Virus record (IMG/VR): IMGVR_UViG_2711768067_000021
Coordinates: 1-7,438 of that record
Source: a virus
Lineage: Duplodnaviria; Heunggongvirae; Uroviricota; Caudoviricetes
Strand: one strand, 5' to 3'
Length of the DNA stretch: 7,438 bases
The translations under genes were made by a program, and so were the position numbers. Under the pieces are notes generated by a model that was given only the letters and a program-made list of their open reading frames with translations, had not been told where the DNA came from and did not search any database. Of this stretch, positions 1 through 7,438 are shown piece by piece. Every line of letters starts with the position of its first letter. Positions within the stretch are counted from its first letter, which is position 1.

Positions 1-1284
1 TTACTTCTTCGCCTCTGCAACCACTTTACTACCCACGCCGCGGTTATTGTATTCCCACATGCGGTTGTAGTTAGTGTCATTCAGATTGCGCTGTATTTCG
101 TCGTTATCATCTACGCTGCCGGTATTACCCGCAAACGGACGATTAGAGATCACCGCATCGGCCCACGGTTTAGCCGTGTTAAAACCTTCGTTGATGGCGC
201 TATCACGGATCACCACCTGACCGTTGGTATTGGCATCAACATCCAGCGAGCGGCCCAGTTGCGCCACACCATCACCGAAAGCATTGAAACGGCTGTTTAC
301 GGCGAGGAAACCGTAGTAAATGTTGTACAGCGTAGCCGGTGCAAACACATACGCTTCTTGCTGAGTACGTGAGTTCACCACGCGGAATTCGGTGTTATCG
401 AACACCACTGCGCCGCGACCAGAAACGATATCCACATCCCCTTCAATGTAGCTGTTGGTCACCAGCGTACGCGGCTGACGGTTGGTTTCCAGACGGTTCT
501 GCACACCGCTGTTGGTGACAAAGAAGGTGTTCTGACGACCGAGAATGTTAACGTTGTTAATCTGTACCTGGTCACCATCAGTACGCAGTGCCACCGCCGG
601 ATGGTTACCTGCATCTACGCTATCGCCCAGCGTGTTTTCGATGGTCAGATTTTGCAGTTGCAGGCCATTGTTTTGTGACCAGAAGACCGCAGAGCAGAGA
701 ACACCGATACTGTCGCTGCGTTTGCTCTGGCAGCTATCGTACATATACCACGCTGGTTTACCTGGCATATATTTGCCGCGCGGGTTGACGTCGTGACGCC
801 AGTCGGCAGGGCTCATGCCACCATCAAGGGAAAGCCCAATCTTCACATCAATCGGTTTTTCACCTGTACCGTACAGAGTAATTCCACCCGGAGCGGCAGG
901 GACATATACCGTTCCCTGATACTCACCAGGCATCACGGCAATATACTGGCGCTTGTTGGTACGCTTGATAATTGCCGCATCTACCGCCGCCTGAATCGTG
1001 GTATGCGTTACACCTTGAGTGCCCGCCGGGCCGACAACAAAGTCAGGTTGCGCAGGCAGGGTAATCGGGGAAGGATTCCACGCTGCAGCACCTGGTGTCA
1101 GGGATGCAAAATAGTGTTGAGCATCGAAATTCTGCGCTTCTTTTGCCGACAGAATCGGGCGAGAAGAGGTACCAGGCGCGGTTTGATCAGAAGGACGTTG
1201 ATCGGGCGGGGTTGAGCTACAGGCGGTCAGCGTCACGCCAAAAGCCAATGCCAGCGCCAGACGGGAAACTGAAAATGTGTTCAC
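1..1284 (-). CDS. ybhC: Host outer-membrane lipoprotein YbhC (pectinesterase-family / putative acyl-CoA thioesterase), complete 427 aa
   Basis: Full ORF on the minus strand; window position 1 is the first base of its stop codon. Start is GTG at 1282-1284 with GGAG 7 nt upstream. N-terminus MNTFSVSRLALALAFGVTLTAC has a lipobox (LTAC) typical of lipoproteins. Protein recognised from memory as E. coli YbhC, the gene on the gal side of attλ. Confidence 0.9.
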   Translation of the reverse strand: MNTFSVSRLALALAFGVTLTACSSTPPDQRPSDQTAPGTSSRPILSAKEAQNFDAQHYFASLTPGAAAWNPSPITLPAQPDFVVGPAGTQGVTHTTIQAAVDAAIIKRTNKRQYIAVMPGEYQGTVYVPAAPGGITLYGTGEKPIDVKIGLSLDGGMSPADWRHDVNPRGKYMPGKPAWYMYDSCQSKRSDSIGVLCSAVFWSQNNGLQLQNLTIENTLGDSVDAGNHPAVALRTDGDQVQINNVNILGRQNTFFVTNSGVQNRLETNRQPRTLVTNSYIEGDVDIVSGRGAVVFDNTEFRVVNSRTQQEAYVFAPATLYNIYYGFLAVNSRFNAFGDGVAQLGRSLDVDANTNGQVVIRDSAINEGFNTAKPWADAVISNRPFAGNTGSVDDNDEIQRNLNDTNYNRMWEYNNRGVGSKVVAEAKK

Positions 1285-1328
1285 AGGTTGCTCCGGGCTA
1301 TGAAATAGAAAAATGAATCCGTTGAAGC

Positions 1329-1349
1329 CTGCTTTTTTATACTAAGTTG
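1329..1349. other. attL: attL core (B-O-P'): ctgcttt / TTTATAC / taagttg; 15-bp common core GCTTTTTTATACTAA at 1331-1345
   Basis: Exact match to the lambda att common core as I recall it. The left half-site CTGCTTT is the attB type (attP has CAGCTTT) and the right half-site TAAGTTG is the attP C' type (attB has TAACTTG), so this is a hybrid BOP' site, i.e. attL of an integrated prophage. Confidence 0.9.
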
Positions 1350-1370
1350 GCATTATAAAAAAGCATTGCT

Positions 1371-1383
1371 TATCAATTTGTTG
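1371..1383. promoter_or_regulatory. IHF binding site H' in the P' arm (TATCAATTTGTTG)
   Basis: Matches the IHF consensus WATCAANNNNTTR; position relative to the core fits the lambda H' site. Confidence 0.7.
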
Positions 1384-1390
1384 CAACGAA

Positions 1391-1422
1391 CAGGTCACTA
1401 TCAGTCAAAATAAAATCATTAT
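1391..1422. promoter_or_regulatory. Int arm-type binding sites P'1, P'2, P'3 (caggtcactat / cagtcaaaat / aaaatcattat)
   Basis: Three tandem repeats resembling the arm-type consensus (C/A)AGTCACTAT, lying between the core and the int stop codon; the third overlaps the int stop (1419-1421). Confidence 0.75.
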
Positions 1423-2489
1423 TTGATTTCAATTTTGTCCCACTCCCTGCCTCTGTCATCACGATACTGTGATGCCATGGTGTCCGACTTATGCCCGAGA
1501 AGATGTTGAGCAAACTTATCGCTTATCTGCTTCTCATAGAGTCTTGCAGACAAACTGCGCAACTCGTGAAAGGTAGGCGGATCCCCTTCGAAGGAAAGAC
1601 CTGATGCTTTTCGTGCGCGCATAAAATACCTTGATACTGTGCCGGATGAAAGCGGTTCGCGACGAGTAGATGCAATTATGGTTTCTCCGCCAAGAATCTC
1701 TTTGCATTTATCAAGTGTTTCCTTCATTGATATTCCGAGAGCATCAACATGCAATACTGTTGGGATGGCAATTTTTACGCCTGTTTTGCTTTGCTCGACA
1801 TAAAGATATCCATCTACGATATCAGACCACTTCATTTCGCATAAATCACCAACTCGTTGCCCGGTAACAACAGCCAGTTCCATTGCAAGTCTGAGCCAAC
1901 ATGGTGATGATTCTGCTGCTTGATAAATTTTCAGGTATTCGTCAGCCGTAAGTCTTGATCTCCTTACCTCTGATTTTGCTGCGCGAGTGGCAGCGACAGG
2001 GTTTGTTGTTATATGGCCTTCAGCTATTGCCTCTCGGAATGCATCGCTCAGTGTTGATCTGATTAACTTGGCTGACGCCGCCTTGCCCTCGTCTATGTAT
2101 CCATTGAGCATTGCCGCAATTTCTTTTGTGGTGATGTCTTCAAGTGGAGCATCAGGCAGACCCCTCCTTATTGCTTTAATTTTGCTCATGTAATTTATGA
2201 GTGTCTTCTGCTTGATTCCTCTGCTGGCCAGGATTTTTTCGTAGCGATCAAGCCATGAATGTAACGTAACGGAATTATCACTGTTGATTCTCGCTGTCAG
2301 AGGCTTGTGTTTGTGTCCTGAAAATAACTCAATGTTGGCCTGTATAGCTTCAGTGATTGCGATTCGCCTGTCTCTGCCTAATCCAAACTCTTTACCCGTC
2401 CTTGGGTCCCTGTAGCAGTAATATCCATTGTTTCTTATATAAAGGTTAGGGGGTAAATCCCGGCGCTCATGACTTCGCCTTCTTCCCAT
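1419..2489 (-). CDS. int: Lambda-type integrase Int (tyrosine recombinase), 356 aa
   Basis: 356-aa ORF beginning MGRRRSHERRDLPPNLYIRNNGYYCYRDPRTGKEFGLGRD, recognised as lambda Int. Stop lies 74 bp from the att core as in lambda; 23-nt overlap with xis. Confidence 0.97.
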   Translation of the reverse strand: MGRRRSHERRDLPPNLYIRNNGYYCYRDPRTGKEFGLGRDRRIAITEAIQANIELFSGHKHKPLTARINSDNSVTLHSWLDRYEKILASRGIKQKTLINYMSKIKAIRRGLPDAPLEDITTKEIAAMLNGYIDEGKAASAKLIRSTLSDAFREAIAEGHITTNPVAATRAAKSEVRRSRLTADEYLKIYQAAESSPCWLRLAMELAVVTGQRVGDLCEMKWSDIVDGYLYVEQSKTGVKIAIPTVLHVDALGISMKETLDKCKEILGGETIIASTRREPLSSGTVSRYFMRARKASGLSFEGDPPTFHELRSLSARLYEKQISDKFAQHLLGHKSDTMASQYRDDRGREWDKIEIK

Positions 2490-2685
2490 TTCTGATCCTC
2501 TTCAAAAGGCTACCTGTTACTGGTCGATTTAAGTCAACCTTTACCGCTGATTCGTGGAACAGATACTCTCTTCCATCCTTAACTGGAGGAGGGAATATCC
2601 TGCACTCGCGTACCCATCGACGAACTGTTTCAAGGCTTCTTGGGCGTCGCTGGCGTGCGTTCCACTCCTGAAGTGTCAAGTACAT
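2467..2685 (-). CDS. xis: Excisionase Xis, 72 aa
   Basis: 72-aa ORF MYLTLQEWNARQRRPRSLETVRRWV..., recognised as lambda Xis. GGAG 8 nt upstream of ATG; 3' end overlaps the int start. Confidence 0.95.
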   Translation of the reverse strand: MYLTLQEWNARQRRPRSLETVRRWVRECRIFPPPVKDGREYLFHESAVKVDLNRPVTGSLLKRIRNGKKAKS

Positions 2686-2697
2686 CGCAAAGTCTCC

Positions 2698-2711
2698 GCA
2701 ATTACACGCAA
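2698..2711 (-). promoter_or_regulatory. Putative cII activator site of the pI promoter (TTGC-N6-TTGC; minus-strand TTGCGTGTAATTGC)
   Basis: Direct-repeat TTGC tetramers spaced by 6 nt, just upstream of the xis ATG, so a transcript initiating about 30 bp downstream would start inside xis and encode Int but not Xis, as described for lambda pI. The -10 element was not pinned down. Confidence 0.5.
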
Positions 2712-2712
2712 G

Positions 2713-2732
2713 AAAAAACCGCCATCAGGCGG
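2713..2732 (-). terminator. Possible weak intrinsic terminator or attenuator hairpin (CCGCC-UGAU-GGCGG followed by UUUUUU on the minus-strand RNA)
   Basis: 5-bp all-GC stem with 4-nt loop followed by six U in the transcribed (minus) direction; the loop contains the stop codon of the 55-aa ORF. Short stem, so low confidence. Confidence 0.3.
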
Positions 2733-2892
2733 CTTGGTGTTCTTTCAGTTCTTCAATTCGAATATTGGTTACGTCTGCATGTGCTATCTGCGCCCACAGC
2801 ATCCAGTGGTCATAGCAGTCGCTGATGTTCTCGGCTTCGATAACTCTGTTGAATGGTTCTCCATTCCATTCACCTGTAACTCGGAAGTGCAT
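2725..2892 (-). CDS. Small hypothetical protein, 55 aa (lambda orf55 position); not in the supplied ORF track
   Basis: Hand-translated from the minus strand: ATG at 2890-2892, TGA at 2725-2727, giving MHFRVTGEWNGEPFNRVIEAENISDCYDHWMLWAQIAHADVTNIRIEELKEHQAA. GGAG 7 nt upstream of ATG. Position between xis and ea8.5 matches the small ORF annotated there in lambda (recollection). Confidence 0.7.
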   Translation of the reverse strand: MHFRVTGEWNGEPFNRVIEAENISDCYDHWMLWAQIAHADVTNIRIEELKEHQAA

Positions 2893-2903
2893 TTATCATC
2901 TCC

Positions 2904-2930
2904 ATAAAACAAAACTCGCCGTAGCGAGTT
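2904..2930 (-). terminator. Putative intrinsic terminator (AACUCGC-UACG-GCGAGUU followed by UUGUUUUAU on the minus-strand RNA)
   Basis: Perfect 7-bp inverted repeat with 4-nt loop and a U-rich tail in the leftward transcript, between the ea8.5 stop and the 55-aa ORF RBS. Confidence 0.45.
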
Positions 2931-2980
2931 CAGATAAAAGAAATCCCCGCGAGTGCGAGGATAGTTACTTGTTCATATTA

Positions 2981-3262
2981 TTAATCGTCAATGTATTTTG
3001 AGCATTGTGGGCAATCATCGATCCCACAATACGATTCATATGCATCCTTTATTGCGTCGCGGGCTTCAGTAAGAGTATTGAATAAGTTGCAGCTATTATC
3101 TTTTTGATATAGGTAAGTTCCTAATTTATAAGCAGAAGAAGCATCATTTCCGCTGTCTAAAATTACATCGTTATGGATTCTGCACCTTGCAAGAACTCCT
3201 GATCCCATAAGGGTCTGCATAGCCCATTGCTCTTGATCTTCACACAAATCATGAATGCTCAT
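2981..3262 (-). CDS. ea8.5: Ea8.5-like protein, 93 aa (probable Cys-rich zinc-binding C-terminus)
   Basis: ORF in track is 99 aa (2981-3280). The second Met (MSIHDLCEDQ..., start 3262) has a strong RBS (AGAGAGGTG) and gives 93 aa, the length I recall for lambda Ea8.5; spacing from xis also matches lambda. The C-terminus contains CGIDDCPQC. Confidence 0.8.
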   Translation of the reverse strand: MSIHDLCEDQEQWAMQTLMGSGVLARCRIHNDVILDSGNDASSAYKLGTYLYQKDNSCNLFNTLTEARDAIKDAYESYCGIDDCPQCSKYIDD

Positions 3263-3361
3263 TTCAACACCTCTCTTCACGTTTCACACACGTTAAGATT
3301 AACAGTGTTTTTACATGCTTTGGAAGATTTATTTTATAAAAACTCTTTTAATACAAATAGA

Positions 3362-3381
3362 TATAATAGTTCACTATTATA
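3362..3381. repeat. 20-bp palindrome TATAATAG-TTCA-CTATTATA overlapping the stop codon of the 367-aa gene
   Basis: 8-bp perfect inverted arms around a 4-bp centre, seen directly in the sequence; sits in the AT-rich spacer where similarity to lambda appears to end. Confidence 0.5.
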
Positions 3382-4480
3382 GCTCCTTTAATCGAGGCGG
3401 TTCTGGTAGAGGCATCCAGTGGGTTACACCGCCAATTGGCTCATCGTCGTCGTACTCCAATGCGGCTATATAGAACCCGTCACGACGAGAATAAGAAATC
3501 CCGGACATTACAATGCCATCCGAAACAACAATAATGTCACCCGTTTCTTTCGGCATTCGCTCACTACAGCTTATCCAACCATCCGGAGTCACCGGAAGCG
3601 AGAACGGCAGCACATCTCTGTGAACAAGTTTTTGCTGTGACAGGTTATCCAGAACTTTCTGTACTGCTGCATCACCGAATACACCAAGCGCATCTGCCAT
3701 AACTCCTACAACCTGATAAGCCTCAGCGCATACCGTGGATAAACCATCCGGAATTACCGGAGAGTTGCCTGCCAATCTACGCAAAACAGCCTTAACAGCC
3801 TCAATACGGTCATCATCGTAACTTTCCGCCGTATCTATGCGGTCAAGCATGATGATGGCGTTATCAATATCAGGATTGCCGGTCCACTCATTACCGCGAT
3901 TGGATTCGGCAGCCTGGTTGCCGCGTACTGGTTGATTCTCGGCTTTACCCTGTCTGTCGTCGCTGCATGAATGCCCTTCCAGCCAGACCAGTGCTTGTCG
4001 CATGAAATACGCAATATGCTTGCCGTGGTAATCGTCTTCATCGATGTGAAAAGCGATACTGCGGATATATTCAATTGCGTTTTCAATGGCCTCCGGCGTT
4101 ATCGGTGCTGACATATTTTGATTTTGGAGTGCCAAGACGCGGCTGGCATCCTCTACGCCTTTAACTGCATCTGCGCAGTAGTTATAGCGATTGCATTCCA
4201 CTAACTTCTGCTTGAGATTTTCAATTGCTTGTGCGACATCAGCCTGCAATTCCGGAACTGGCGGAGTGGCATATAACGGCACCCACTTTGGTGCTTTATC
4301 CCCGACCGAACGCTGATACCAGTCACCCGGTTTGTATTCATAAAACTCACCAACAGGCTCTGCTTCCAGCGATGCCAGCGCAATTTCATAAGCACGGCGC
4401 TCAATATTGTCTCGCACGTCCAGACTGCCTATGCGCTCTTTGATTTCTTTAATCAGTTCTTTGTCGGTTAAAGTGGTCAT
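3377..4480 (-). CDS. Hypothetical acidic prophage protein, 367 aa, C-terminal DUF551-like domain; cargo gene absent from canonical lambda
   Basis: Long ORF with GAGG 8 nt upstream of ATG. C-terminus ...DGWISCSERMPKETGDIIVVSDG...GGVTHWMPLPEPP resembles the DUF551 signature (recognised from memory, not searched). N-terminal ~300 aa is acidic with no family I can name. GC content looks similar to the neighbouring phage genes. Confidence 0.8.
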   Translation of the reverse strand: MTTLTDKELIKEIKERIGSLDVRDNIERRAYEIALASLEAEPVGEFYEYKPGDWYQRSVGDKAPKWVPLYATPPVPELQADVAQAIENLKQKLVECNRYNYCADAVKGVEDASRVLALQNQNMSAPITPEAIENAIEYIRSIAFHIDEDDYHGKHIAYFMRQALVWLEGHSCSDDRQGKAENQPVRGNQAAESNRGNEWTGNPDIDNAIIMLDRIDTAESYDDDRIEAVKAVLRRLAGNSPVIPDGLSTVCAEAYQVVGVMADALGVFGDAAVQKVLDNLSQQKLVHRDVLPFSLPVTPDGWISCSERMPKETGDIIVVSDGIVMSGISYSRRDGFYIAALEYDDDEPIGGVTHWMPLPEPPRLKEL

Positions 4481-4490
4481 AAATTATGCC

Positions 4491-5024
4491 TCAGTTGTAT
4501 CCGATTGGATTAACCGCAACAATAACGCCATCCGCGAACAAATCTTTAATGAGGTGTTCGCTCGGCTCGCCTTTTTCGTACTCTTCAATAAGGTAAGTGT
4601 CTCCATCCTCATTGATATAAACTGGAAGAATGGAACCGTTGATGAAGTAGGTTCCGTTGTTATCGAGGATTTTTGCCTCGGCGATTTGTTTTTTGGTAAA
4701 ACGATCTTCTTTTTTCAAAGTTGCCATATCTGTTTCCTTATGTGGGTTAATTTTATTGTGTAGCTTCCTGAATGGGGTCCACACTATATCGATATACAGT
4801 TCAACTAACGGTTCAAATACTTTCCCCATTAGAACAGTCACTAATATTGAGGCTATTGGTATCAGCAACACGAAAAACAGAATGATAAACAGCAATTCTA
4901 TTGCTCTACTCTTTCGCGGATATTCTTTTCTGAATAAAGTGGGCATTTCCTCCCCATTAAATGCGTCAATGATTTCTCCAGTGTTTTGCGCTGCACCTGA
5001 ATTATCTTTAAATCCTTCTTTCAT
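4491..5024 (-). CDS. Hypothetical single-pass membrane protein, 177 aa, in an AT-rich segment (moron-like cargo gene)
   Basis: ORF with GAGGAA about 12 nt upstream of ATG. Hydrophobic stretch LLFIILFFVLLIPIASILVTVLMG preceded by basic residues (RKEYPRKSR), suggesting N-in topology. Its stop codon sits 10 nt from the start of the downstream 367-aa gene and overlaps that gene's RBS. Hand-counted GC is about 38% in two 60-nt samples versus about 48% in a flanking sample. An internal ATG (4725-4727) with a strong AAGGAA RBS could yield a 78-aa soluble C-terminal product. Confidence 0.7.
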   Translation of the reverse strand: MKEGFKDNSGAAQNTGEIIDAFNGEEMPTLFRKEYPRKSRAIELLFIILFFVLLIPIASILVTVLMGKVFEPLVELYIDIVWTPFRKLHNKINPHKETDMATLKKEDRFTKKQIAEAKILDNNGTYFINGSILPVYINEDGDTYLIEEYEKGEPSEHLIKDLFADGVIVAVNPIGYN

Positions 5025-5030
5025 CGTTTG

Positions 5031-5720
5031 CTATTCTTCCTCACACCCAAGATATGAAAGAGATGTAATTGCTTTTGCACGGAAACCACCAACCTTGCTA
5101 AGTGCGCTTTTAAGTGCGTCAAGGTCAGATTGTGATTTGATCATGAAAGTTAACCGCGCAATTCCAGACATAGAGTCAGAACCATTCACTGCGTTGTAGT
5201 GATATATGTATCGGGTGACTGATTGAGTCACGCCCTCCTGCTGGTGGTTTATATTGGCGTCCTGTCTTGTGTTGGCCTGCTCCAACTCTTCGATACGTTC
5301 AGCCATCGCAGCACACTCTTCAAAGTTGCTTAATGCTTTTCGCTCCGATTCAGCGCATTGTTTTTCCAGTTCTGCTATGCGCTTACCTCCATCCGCGATT
5401 ACTCCCTCGTAATGCTCGCGCTGCTCGTTGAGTTTTGATTTTGCCGACTCCAGTTGTTTTGTTAGTTCCGCAATACGGCAAACATCGTTGATACGCGTTT
5501 CCTCTAATGCGTTGATCTCATCCAGTAGTGCCAAAGCAACCTTTGGATTAAAGGCAGCAATAAATTCAGCGTTGTTTTTCAGAACGTGTTGCGCAATGGC
5601 CTGACTACTTAGTCGGACCTCATAACCACGTGCGCCACGGTGTGGTTTATATGAGTCCCAGTCTCCCCACGTTGCTTTCACTGCCGCCTCACGCAGTGCC
5701 TGATAGTTAATTTCGCTCAC
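5031..5720 (-). CDS. ea22: Ea22-like protein, 229 aa (conserved N-terminus and coiled-coil centre, divergent C-terminus)
   Basis: GTG start at 5718-5720 with AGAGAGG 6 nt upstream; the start overlaps the stop of the 73-aa gene (GTGA). N-terminal MSEINYQALREAA... and the central ...AKSKLNEQREHYEGVIADGGKRIAELE... resemble what I recall of lambda Ea22 and the ead/Ea22-like family; lambda Ea22 is 182 aa by recollection, so the C-terminal part differs. Confidence 0.75.
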   Translation of the reverse strand: MSEINYQALREAAVKATWGDWDSYKPHRGARGYEVRLSSQAIAQHVLKNNAEFIAAFNPKVALALLDEINALEETRINDVCRIAELTKQLESAKSKLNEQREHYEGVIADGGKRIAELEKQCAESERKALSNFEECAAMAERIEELEQANTRQDANINHQQEGVTQSVTRYIYHYNAVNGSDSMSGIARLTFMIKSQSDLDALKSALSKVGGFRAKAITSLSYLGCEEE

Positions 5721-5938
5721 TTCGAACCTCTCTGTTTACTGATAAGCTCCAGATCCTCCTGGCAACTTGCACAAGTCCGACAACCCTGAACGACCAGGCG
5801 TCTTCGTTCATCTATGGGATCGCCACACTCACAACAATGAGTGGCGGATATAGTCTGGTAGTTCAGACGACGCATTTTTATTGCTGTATTGCGCTGTAAT
5901 TCTTCAATTTCTGATGCTGAATCAATGATGTCCGCCAT
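5717..5938 (-). CDS. TraR/DksA-family C4 zinc-finger protein, 73 aa (lambda Orf73-like RNA polymerase-binding regulator)
   Basis: Contains CCEC...14 aa...CRTCASC, a CxxC-spacer-CxxC zinc-finger pattern typical of TraR/DksA-family proteins; the 73-aa length matches the lambda TraR homologue Orf73 as I recall it. Confidence 0.8.
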   Translation of the reverse strand: MADIIDSASEIEELQRNTAIKMRRLNYQTISATHCCECGDPIDERRRLVVQGCRTCASCQEDLELISKQRGSK

Positions 5939-5987
5939 CTTTCATTAATCCCTGAATTGTTGGTTAATACGCTTGAGGGTGAATGCG

Positions 5988-6014
5988 AATAATAAAAAAG
6001 GAGCCTGTAGCTCC
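5988..6014 (-). terminator. Putative Rho-independent terminator (GGAGC-UACAG-GCUCC followed by UUUUUUAUUAUU on the minus-strand RNA)
   Basis: 5-bp GC-rich stem with a 5-nt loop and a U-tract immediately downstream (leftward) of the small ORF ending at 6037 and upstream of the 73-aa gene. Within the pL operon, so it would be read through under N antitermination. Confidence 0.55.
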
Positions 6015-6036
6015 CTGATGATTTTGCTTTTCATGT

Positions 6037-6252
6037 TCACCGTTCCTTAAAGACGCCGTTTAACATACCGATTGCCAGACTTAAGTGAGTCGGTGTGAAT
6101 CCCATCAGCGTTACCGTTTCGCGGTGCTTCTTCAGTACGCTACGGCAAATGTCATCGACGTTTTTATCCGGAAACTGCTGTCTGGCTTTTTTGATTTCAT
6201 AATTAGCCTGACGGGCAATACTGCGAAGGGCGTTTTCTTGCTGAGGTGTCAT
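6037..6252 (-). CDS. Hypothetical small protein, about 71 aa (start uncertain; track ORF extends to 6318 giving 93 aa)
   Basis: The protein-like part begins MTPQQENALRSIARQANYEIKKARQQFPDKNVDD...; the 22 residues upstream (MHFSGSGLHILCAYACRHGTCS) look non-protein-like and the 6318 ATG lacks an RBS. The RBS for 6252 is also weak (GGGA about 11 nt upstream), so the start call is tentative. Confidence 0.55.
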   Translation of the reverse strand: MTPQQENALRSIARQANYEIKKARQQFPDKNVDDICRSVLKKHRETVTLMGFTPTHLSLAIGMLNGVFKER

Positions 6253-6328
6253 TGAACAAGTCCCATGTCGGCAAGCATAAGCACACAGAATATGAAGCCC
6301 GCTGCCAGAAAAATGCATTCAGTGGTTG

Positions 6329-6520
6329 TCATACCTGGTCTCTCTCATCTGCTTCTGCTTTCGCCACCATCATTTCCAGCTTTTGTGAAAGGGATGTGGC
6401 TAACGTATGAAATTCTTCGTCTGTTTCTACTGGTATTGGCACAAACCTGACTCCAATTTGAGCAAGGCTATGTGCCATCTCAATGCTCGTTCTTAACTCA
6501 ACAGGAGATGCTTTGTGCAT
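6329..6520 (-). CDS. orf63: Small early protein, 63 aa (lambda orf63 position)
   Basis: 63-aa ORF with GAGGGG RBS; overlaps the upstream orf60a by 28 nt, the same arrangement and length I recall for lambda orf63. Confidence 0.75.
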   Translation of the reverse strand: MHKASPVELRTSIEMAHSLAQIGVRFVPIPVETDEEFHTLATSLSQKLEMMVAKAEADERDQV

Positions 6521-6675
6521 ACAGCCCCTCGTTTATTATTTATCTCCTCAGCCAGCCGCTGGGCTTTCAGTGGATTTTGGATAACAGAAAGGCCGGGAAA
6601 TACCCAGCCTCGCTTTGTAACGGAGTAGACGAAAGTGATCGCACCTACCCGGATATTATCGTGAGGATGCTTCAT
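6493..6675 (-). CDS. orf60a: Small early protein, 60 aa (lambda orf60a position)
   Basis: Track ORF is 62 aa from 6681. The second ATG (6673-6675) overlaps the exo stop codon (ATGA) and sits 8 nt downstream of GGGGAG, giving 60 aa as in lambda orf60a. Confidence 0.7.
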
Positions 6676-7352
6676 CGCCATTGCTCCCCAAATACAAAAC
6701 CAATTTCAGCCAGTGCCTCGTCCATTTTTTCGATGAACTCCGGCACCATCTCGTCAAAACTCGCCATGTACTTTTCATCCTGCTCAATCACGACATAATG
6801 CAGGCCTTCACGCTTCATCCGCGGGTCATAGTTAGCAAAGTACCAGGCATCTTTTCGTGTCACCCACATGCTGTACTGCACCTGGGCCATGTAAGCCGAC
6901 TTTATGGCCTCGAAACCACCGAGCCGGAATTTCATGAAATCCCGGGAGGTAAACGGGCATTTCAGTTCAAGGCCGTTGCCGTCACTGCATAAACCATCGG
7001 GAGAGCAGGCGGTGCGCATACTTTCGTCGCGATAGATGATCGGGGATTCATTAACATTCACGCCGGAAGTGAACTCAAAGAGGGCTCTGGCGTCGTTCTC
7101 GTACTGTTTTCCCCAGGCCAGCGCCTTAGCGTTAACTTCCGGAGCCACACCGGTGCAAACCTCGGCAAGCAGGGTGTGGAAGTAGGACATTTTCATGTCA
7201 GGCCATTTCTTTCCGGAGCGGGGTTTTGCTATCACATTGTGAACTTCTGAAGCGGTGATGACGCCGAGCCGTAATTTGTGCCACGCATCATCCCCCTGTT
7301 CGACAGCTCTCACGTCGATCCCGGTACGCTGCAGGATAATGTCCGGTGTCAT
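6672..7352 (-). CDS. exo: Lambda exonuclease (Red-alpha, 5'-3' dsDNA exonuclease), 226 aa
   Basis: 226-aa [43 protein letters not shown]..., recognised as lambda Exo; start codon overlaps the bet stop (ATGA). Confidence 0.97.
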
Positions 7353-7438
7353 GCAGCCACCTTCTGTTCAGAGGCTTTCTGTTTCAGGAATCCAAGAGCT
7401 TTCACTGCTTCGGCCTGTGTCAGTTCTGACGATGCGCG
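7349..7438 (-). CDS. bet: Bet (Red-beta single-strand annealing protein), C-terminal 29 codons only; gene continues beyond the window
   Basis: Hand translation of the minus strand from the window end gives [29 protein letters not shown] then TGA, consistent with the lambda Bet C-terminus; the stop overlaps the exo start. Confidence 0.85.

Follow-up and report, generated by a model that had tools for sequence, protein, structure and literature searches.

A minus-strand open reading frame (ORF) of 177 codons, running from an ATG at 5022-5024 to a stop codon at 4491-4493, raises the question of whether it encodes a two-domain membrane protein equipped with a second, internal translation start, or whether this architecture was assembled from genes that were formerly separate. 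All coordinates refer to the window, that is, the whole stretch of 7,438 nucleotides that was analysed. The original prediction had pointed to a gene that could yield both a membrane-anchored protein and a free C-terminal domain. The comparisons described below speak for a different origin: the ORF is probably an in-frame weld of three consecutive small accessory genes of the lambdoid early-left (exo-xis) region, joined through 1-nt deletions at stop-N-start junctions. Its parts are as follows:

4491..5024, minus strand: composite ORF, 177 aa (cluster at 99% identity with 160 members, 133 contigs)
4947..5024, minus strand: decayed remnant of the upstream gene, codons 1-26 (DNA alignment to TUM2820, PEC178 and EC361)
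4728..4946, minus strand: DUF4014 module, codons 27-99 (Pfam PF13198, phrog_1832 and canonical 72-aa homologues)
4824..4904, minus strand: transmembrane (TM) helix, aa 41-67 (Kyte-Doolittle hydropathy, flank charges and AlphaFold2)
4732..4739, minus strand: AAGGAAAC, Shine-Dalgarno sequence (SD) for the 78-aa gene, at which the 1-nt deletion behind the fusion also occurred (junction alignment)
4491..4727, minus strand: 78-aa gene of the phrog_8930 family, starting at ATG 4725-4727 (phrog_8930 match and stand-alone homologues)

The window represents the left arm of a prophage of the lambdoid type that is integrated at the lambda attachment site, and the surroundings of the composite ORF comprise the following features:

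1-1284: chromosomal gene for a pectinesterase-family lipoprotein, GC 53%
1285-1418: intergenic stretch between the pectinesterase-family gene and int, GC 34%
1419-2489: lambda-type int
2467-2685: xis
3377..4480, minus strand: DUF551 protein of 367 aa (Pfam PF04448), with an SD overlapping the 78-aa stop codon
5031..5720, minus strand: Ead/Ea22-like gene (Pfam PF13935 at 2.6e-21), whose stop lies 6 nt before ATG 5022-5024
6672-7352: YqaJ/Exo gene, at the end of the small leftward gene run

The sequence GCTTTTTTATACTAA occurs at 1330-1344 and is presumably the common core of lambda att, by which the window is recognized as spanning the prophage/chromosome junction at the lambda attachment site. 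From exo toward xis, the gene order is DUF1317 (orf60a), DUF1382 (orf63), phrog_303, a DksA-like zinc finger gene (orf73), Ead/Ea22, the composite ORF, DUF551 and an ea8.5-like gene. This arrangement resembles the lambdoid exo-xis region, with counterparts of orf60a, orf63, orf73 and ea22 upstream and ea8.5-like, xis and int genes downstream (PMC8614690). The published gene list of that region comprises orf60a, orf63, orf61, orf73 and ea22, followed by a variable block that is left uncharacterised (PMC8614690). Lambda itself has neither a DUF4014 nor a phrog_8930 gene; the composite ORF belongs to the variable downstream set, and the exo-xis papers do not treat it.

Several observations concern the neighbors themselves. 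At the 3' end of the Ea22 gene (5024-5040), a 1-nt indel distinguishes GAAGAATAG in the window from GGAAGATAGC in the loci L003 and L004; as a result, TAG 5031-5033 ends Ea22 here, and in near-identical plasmid copies its stop is a TGA that overlaps with the following ATG (ATGA). A terminator-like hairpin of 8 pairs followed by TTTTATTATT is located on the minus strand at 5998-6016, between the phrog_303 and DksA-like zinc-finger genes, and thus on the coding strand within the early-left operon. The DUF551 protein (3377-4480, minus strand) matches 12 different PHROGs over different segments and therefore looks mosaic or multi-module, while related copies are annotated by PGAP as partial or, as in L003, as pseudogenes with internal stops. 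Among 5,426 complete E. coli genomes, none reproduces this arrangement over 80% or more of positions 1200-7438; in the best matches, the int-xis and exo flanks are about 98.5% identical and the central block is different, with a dATP/dGTP pyrophosphohydrolase gene. An Rfam gathering scan of the whole window for structured RNA returned no matches.

The base composition of the ORF had originally been taken as a sign of distinct acquisition. GC is indeed not uniform, amounting to 38.8% for the 177-aa ORF in comparison to 48.9% for the DUF551 gene (3377-4480), 47.1% for the Ea22 gene (5031-5720) and 46.0% for the whole prophage part, which agrees with a mosaic module of lower GC. This dip is genuine, yet it is not exceptional for the prophage: when the prophage part is scanned in 534-nt windows, 7.0% of them have a GC content equal to or below that of the ORF, the minimum of 36.5% falling within the ea8.5 region near 2847.

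Profile searches split the 177-aa product into DUF4014 (residues 27-97) and phrog_8930 (residues 100-177). The DUF4014 part scores 70.7 bits with PF13198 (gathering cutoff 23.2), where aa 28-97 fall on profile positions 2-71 of 72, and matches phrog_1832 (profile length 72) at 2e-30. Canonical DUF4014 proteins have 72 aa in nearly all clusters, begin with GTG or ATG and end at a TGA stop of their own. The module shares with the DUF4014/PHROG 1832 family, small membrane proteins from temperate phages of enterobacteria, the TM helix, the basic N-terminal flank and the position of a small early-left gene after Ead/Ea22, but in the window its stop has left the frame, its usual start comes after 26 foreign codons, and the ORF continues for 78 more codons beyond the point where a stand-alone protein of about 72 aa would end. 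The single TM helix with basic residues before it, as originally predicted, is borne out by a Kyte-Doolittle 19-mer peak of 3.24 at aa 44-62 inside a hydrophobic run at aa 41-67, by net charges of +4 over the 14 residues before and -2 over the 15 residues after the TM segment, and by a continuous helix at aa 40-92 in the AlphaFold2 model (pLDDT 80-90). Under the positive-inside rule, DUF4014 is probably a bitopic inner-membrane peptide of about 72 aa with N-in/C-out orientation, a topology derived purely from hydropathy and charge. A literature search for DUF4014 or PF13198 found no paper, and the label attached to PHROG 1832, 'released from the phage upon host infection', was not traced to any paper.

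What had been described as a C-terminal domain of roughly 110 aa consists in fact of three pieces: the helical last 32 aa of DUF4014, a linker of low confidence and the 78-aa module. In the full-length AlphaFold2 model (pTM 0.33), pLDDT falls below 50 in the linker (aa 98-109) and below 52 in aa 1-36; with such a low pTM and low-confidence linker, the model offers no evidence of packing between the modules.

The 78-aa module is soluble, acidic (net charge -6) and beta-rich, and its AlphaFold2 model (pLDDT 75) describes a small beta-rich domain; structure and sequence searches with it returned no significant structural neighbor and no likeness to a characterised protein. It matches phrog_8930 at 9.7e-52 over aa 1-78, and its 20 homologues of 67-110 aa include stand-alone proteins that it matches over their full length. 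Among 1.84 billion representatives, the family forms 25 clusters at 50% identity, nearly all of them consisting of stand-alone proteins of 64-106 aa, and a core of about 67 aa is found in phages of Enterobacteriaceae such as Salmonella phage STP03. Values of dN/dS between 0.04 and 0.15 indicate strong purifying selection on the module. In most family members, the column corresponding to residue S56 of the window holds Cys (motif EPCEH); Ser (EPSEH) is found in the window, in phage D6 and in other copies with the MATL extension.

Whether the ATG at 4725-4727 is a genuine start is central to the origin of the ORF. The AAGGAA at 4734-4739, to which the original prediction had drawn attention, is present at a spacing of 6 nt with an SD:anti-SD duplex energy of -6.2 kcal/mol, within the range of accepted gene starts in the window (-5.6 to -7.7 kcal/mol). 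Given that 15% of the ATGs on the minus strand have an equally strong SD match within 20 nt upstream, this signal is not decisive alone. More informative are the loci in which the gene stands by itself. In the P22-like phage APC_JM3.2, the 78-aa gene occurs alone, directly after Ead/Ea22, and the stand-alone protein of APC_JM3.2 and L147 shows 100% identity to residues 100-177 of the composite ORF, without a single nucleotide difference in the underlying DNA. E. coli TUM2820 has two adjacent genes, one for DUF4014 (72 aa) and one for a hypothetical protein of 78 aa, with 1 nt between them, and the SD and ATG of the 78-aa gene are identical in split loci. Even on plasmid MINF_7C, which carries a fused copy, PGAP calls the 78-aa coding sequence separately as WP_000212569.1. 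The copy in the window differs from stand-alone proteins of the phrog_8930 or WP_000212569.1 type in that no stop precedes the gene, which also forms the C-terminus of a longer ORF. Judged by these comparisons, ATG 4725-4727 is the native start of an independent gene, as in APC_JM3.2, TUM2820 and other loci, and it is probably still used for initiation; the earlier proposal of a 78-aa soluble product is thus credible.

The profile of phrog_8930 itself is 116 positions long and spans aa 62-177 of the fused ORF (4491-4841), beginning at an internal GTG within the TM helix that has no SD. Such a length is apparently due to many members having been called from the internal GTG of the fused ORF; hence PHROG 8930 seems to have been built partly from mis-started calls on fused loci, with the true unit corresponding to the last 78 positions. 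At 4695-4727, the 78-aa gene and the unrelated 87-aa phrog_1714 gene (L006, 1591-1854) share about 8 first codons (MATLTKKE and MATLKKED), and other members of the 78-aa family do not have the 10-residue N-terminal extension. In view of both observations, the 5' end of the 78-aa gene looks like a recombination joint that moves ribosome-binding site and start between genes.

The junction sequences reveal how the two modules came into one frame. In the loci of relatives, the canonical DUF4014/78-aa junction reads ...AAGGAAAGC TGA T ATG..., or in codons ...CCA TAT AAG GAA AGC TGA T ATG GCA.... DNA alignment gives AAGGAAA(G/A)C TGA T ATG GCA for TUM2820 and PEC178, and AAGGAAA-C(A/T)GAT ATG GCA for the window, phage D6 and near-identical P1-like plasmid copies, in which one base of the run is missing. 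The AAGGAAAC at 4732..4739 is accordingly the deleted form of the canonical AAGGAAAGC or AAGGAAAAC. Loss of this base from the A-run places the TGA out of frame and brings DUF4014 into register with the next gene. Codons 1-26, for which no PHROG match was found, can be aligned as DNA with the 3' portion of a gene of about 63 aa that precedes DUF4014 in TUM2820, PEC178 and EC361. In this alignment, MKEGFKDNSGAAQN is the counterpart of ...REGIKDKRSAAQN, after which the frame shifts: a second 1-nt deletion, after CAAAAC (about 4982-4988), takes the frame of the upstream remnant into the DUF4014 start. Most of the ~63-aa gene has been removed by an internal deletion, and the ancestral frame of the remnant now holds stops. 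In the canonical relatives, genes end in the order stop - 1 nt - start with the next gene in the +1 frame, and with this spacing a 1-nt deletion near the 3' end of an upstream gene always yields an in-frame fusion.

Two other accounts of the junction were considered. A sequencing or assembly error is ruled out, since the same junction recurs in phage D6, plasmids, chromosomes, 9 IMG/VR loci and a cluster of 133 contigs. A programmed +1 frameshift of the prfB type at the canonical junction, where an SD-like element precedes UGA, was rejected on the basis of the junction sequences and general knowledge, given that the P-site codons AGC and AAC cannot re-pair and that the SD is already accounted for as the ribosome-binding site of the next gene. 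For the same reason, namely that these last sense codons cannot re-pair in the +1 frame, it is unlikely that the canonical junction, with AAGGA a few nt before the last sense codon and UGA, already allows some +1 read-through that the deletion then hard-wired.

A census of relatives places the fusion in a wider setting. Among the IMG/VR matches listed, at least 117 true DUF4014 junctions are of the split type and 12 of the fused type, and most split loci carry a different downstream gene of the 87-aa phrog_1714 type. This 78-aa gene is present at 12 IMG/VR loci (9 fused to DUF4014, 1 split and 2 directly after Ea22), so that it is fused in 9 of the 10 in which it lies downstream of DUF4014. 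D6-like fused forms of 151 aa exist beside the 177-aa cluster. The same fused DUF4014 allele is joined to three downstream genes, namely the 78-aa type, the 87-aa phrog_1714 type and a MATITRE... type; for instance, P0005, L150 and L151 carry the DUF4014 deletion allele fused to the 87-aa gene, P0005 and L150 being of the window type, while P0049, a close relative at the DUF4014 protein level, is split. The fusion therefore tracks the DUF4014 allele and not one partner, and in place of the fixed partner expected of a conserved unit, three partners were found, with split relatives in the majority. In the IMG/VR loci L013 and L016, DUF4014 is cut to ...PTLFRK|LHNKINPH by an in-frame internal deletion, apparently placed between two FRK-encoding repeats, that removes the TM helix; the remainder continues in the frame of the following gene, which is of a third kind (MATITRESAEIK...).

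The fused alleles form a DUF4014 subclade of their own, with at least 22% DNA divergence from split alleles and up to about 8% internally, and dS between the window type and the D6 type is 0.31-0.44. From this divergence, the fusion is not an assembly error and is both old and tolerated. The dN/dS of DUF4014 is 0.32-0.57 in fused-versus-fused and 0.31-0.35 in fused-versus-split comparisons; constraint on DUF4014 is thus weaker than on the 78-aa module and similar in the two kinds of comparison. A DUF4014 frame kept open in an old subclade could mean that the fusion protein itself is functional.

A rather unlikely reading, though one that deserves some weight, holds that DUF4014 is dead, the upstream two-thirds of the ORF being an untranslated or poorly translated pseudogene and the 78-aa gene the only functional part. 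PGAP labels fused copies as a DUF4014 family protein, pseudogene, missing C-terminus; the upstream gene is visibly decayed, the TM segment has been lost in L013 and L016, and dN/dS of DUF4014 reaches 0.57. In addition, the canonical start (AAGGAG, 6 nt, GTG) has been replaced by GGGGAGGAA-ATG, with an SD 1 nt from M27 and another 12 nt from M1, neither of which is well spaced. Nevertheless, predictions from ribosome-binding-site spacing are approximate, and coupled reinitiation at M1 would be possible in near-identical copies, whose Ea22 stop shares bases with the M1 ATG (ATGA); moreover, the fused subclade has kept both the DUF4014 frame and its TM helix throughout, even at a dS of 0.3-0.4, with dN/dS no higher than in fused-versus-split comparisons. 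At the opposite pole, a selected innovation, in which one ORF deliberately provides a membrane-tethered and a free 78-aa domain in the manner of nested in-frame genes, appears improbable. The persistence of the fused state in a diversified subclade (160 members on 133 contigs), the retention of the internal SD and ATG, and the fused state of nine of ten loci where the 78-aa gene follows DUF4014 would fit it. They are outweighed by the welding of the same deletion allele to three unrelated downstream genes, by the split state of the close relative P0049, by the lack of predicted inter-module packing and by the first fusion in the same ORF, a 26-codon remnant that is plainly decay; furthermore, an N-in/C-out anchor would place a signal-less protein of cytoplasmic type in the periplasm.

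Two further readings concern function and strand. The pL operon is repressed in lysogens, as is established for lambda. The original prediction had suggested superinfection exclusion, abortive infection or a toxin/regulator pair, and a prophage-expressed factor of this kind is now very improbable. What speaks for it is generic, namely a small single-pass membrane protein in a lower-GC prophage accessory region. PADLOC at E <= 0.1 gave nothing for either the full ORF or the 78-aa module and NCBIfam nothing meaningful; neither part showed homology to a fold known from toxins, antitoxins or regulators, and no fold or sequence likeness to any characterised protein was found, nor was any DUF4014 literature. 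The ORF also lies inside the pL operon (PMC8614690), and no promoter-like site was seen on the coding strand within 3300-6100. Still harder to credit is a real gene on the opposite strand, the 180-aa plus-strand ORF at 4657..5199. It is open here and in 29 of 37 unique DUF4014 variants, it matches phrog_20982 at 4e-16, and pooled pN/pS (0.56 antisense versus 0.47 sense) is too close to discriminate the strand for DUF4014. However, the antisense frame contains stops in the remaining 8 of the 37 variants, crosses the boundaries of Ea22, DUF4014 and the 78-aa gene against the direction of the operon, and has its nearest plus-strand promoter-like sites at 3507 and 5964, while a curated Pfam match, a TM helix obeying the positive-inside rule and stop-N-start coupling to both neighbors are all found on the sense strand. 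It was accordingly dismissed as a shadow ORF, and the stops in 8 of 37 variants suggest that phrog_20982 is probably a family of wrong-strand calls.

Under the preferred reading, the weld of three genes, the ancestral genes would have been translationally coupled, and two 1-nt deletions, one after CAAAAC in the ~63-aa gene and the other in the GGAAA(G/A)C run that ends DUF4014, joined them into one frame. The functional units would then be the DUF4014 membrane peptide and the soluble, acidic, beta-rich 78-aa protein, with the latter most likely still made in free form from its own SD and ATG. Ribosomes starting at M27 or M1 would in addition produce a membrane-anchored fusion of 151 or 177 aa; M1 has no well-spaced SD, but it lies 6 nt past the Ea22 stop here and overlaps it in the near-identical copies. 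Such a fusion is most likely a tolerated by-product rather than a design. With an N-in/C-out anchor, an acidic domain that has no signal and is normally cytoplasmic would end up facing the periplasm, and this predicted placement makes a design doubtful.

With respect to timing, a consensus scan for sigma-70-like sites on the minus strand found none within 3300-6100, a scan that weak or non-canonical promoters could escape. Together with the position in the pL operon, this suggests that expression would be expected upon infection or induction and not in the lysogen. The exo-xis region is transcribed early from pL, and its gene set after ea22 is variable (PMC8614690). By position and by analogy with exo-xis neighbors that modulate the lysis-lysogeny decision, both modules may be regarded as accessory early genes. 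A more speculative version, which we consider a long shot, is that the fused subclade represents a maintained innovation in which one transcript gives rise to the free 78-aa protein and to a second copy that the DUF4014 anchor holds at the inner membrane or carries across it; if true, the phage would thereby partition or titrate a small early product between compartments.

Genes nested in frame behind an internal start are well known in phages, including lambda C/Nu3 and S107/S105, T7 gene 4A/4B and phiX174 A/A*, all of which are conserved designs with demonstrated dual products. The composite ORF resembles them in having one frame with an upstream start and an internal SD and ATG that could give a shorter product with an identical C-terminus. 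It differs from them in being a frameshift fusion of separate genes with a variable partner and with dual products that are predicted.

The 177-aa ORF is therefore best described as an ordinary frameshift fusion of members of catalogued families, located in the mosaic accessory block of a phage. The appropriate annotation is a DUF4014 gene frameshift-fused to an intact 78-aa gene, and not a novel two-domain membrane protein of 177 aa. Should the fusion prove functional, it would provide a small natural example of tethered and free isoforms, although nothing here requires it. More generally, in phage operons with stop - 1 nt - start spacing, a single-base deletion results in an in-frame fusion rather than a truncation, and the start of the downstream gene is kept, so that apparent internal-start genes can arise trivially.
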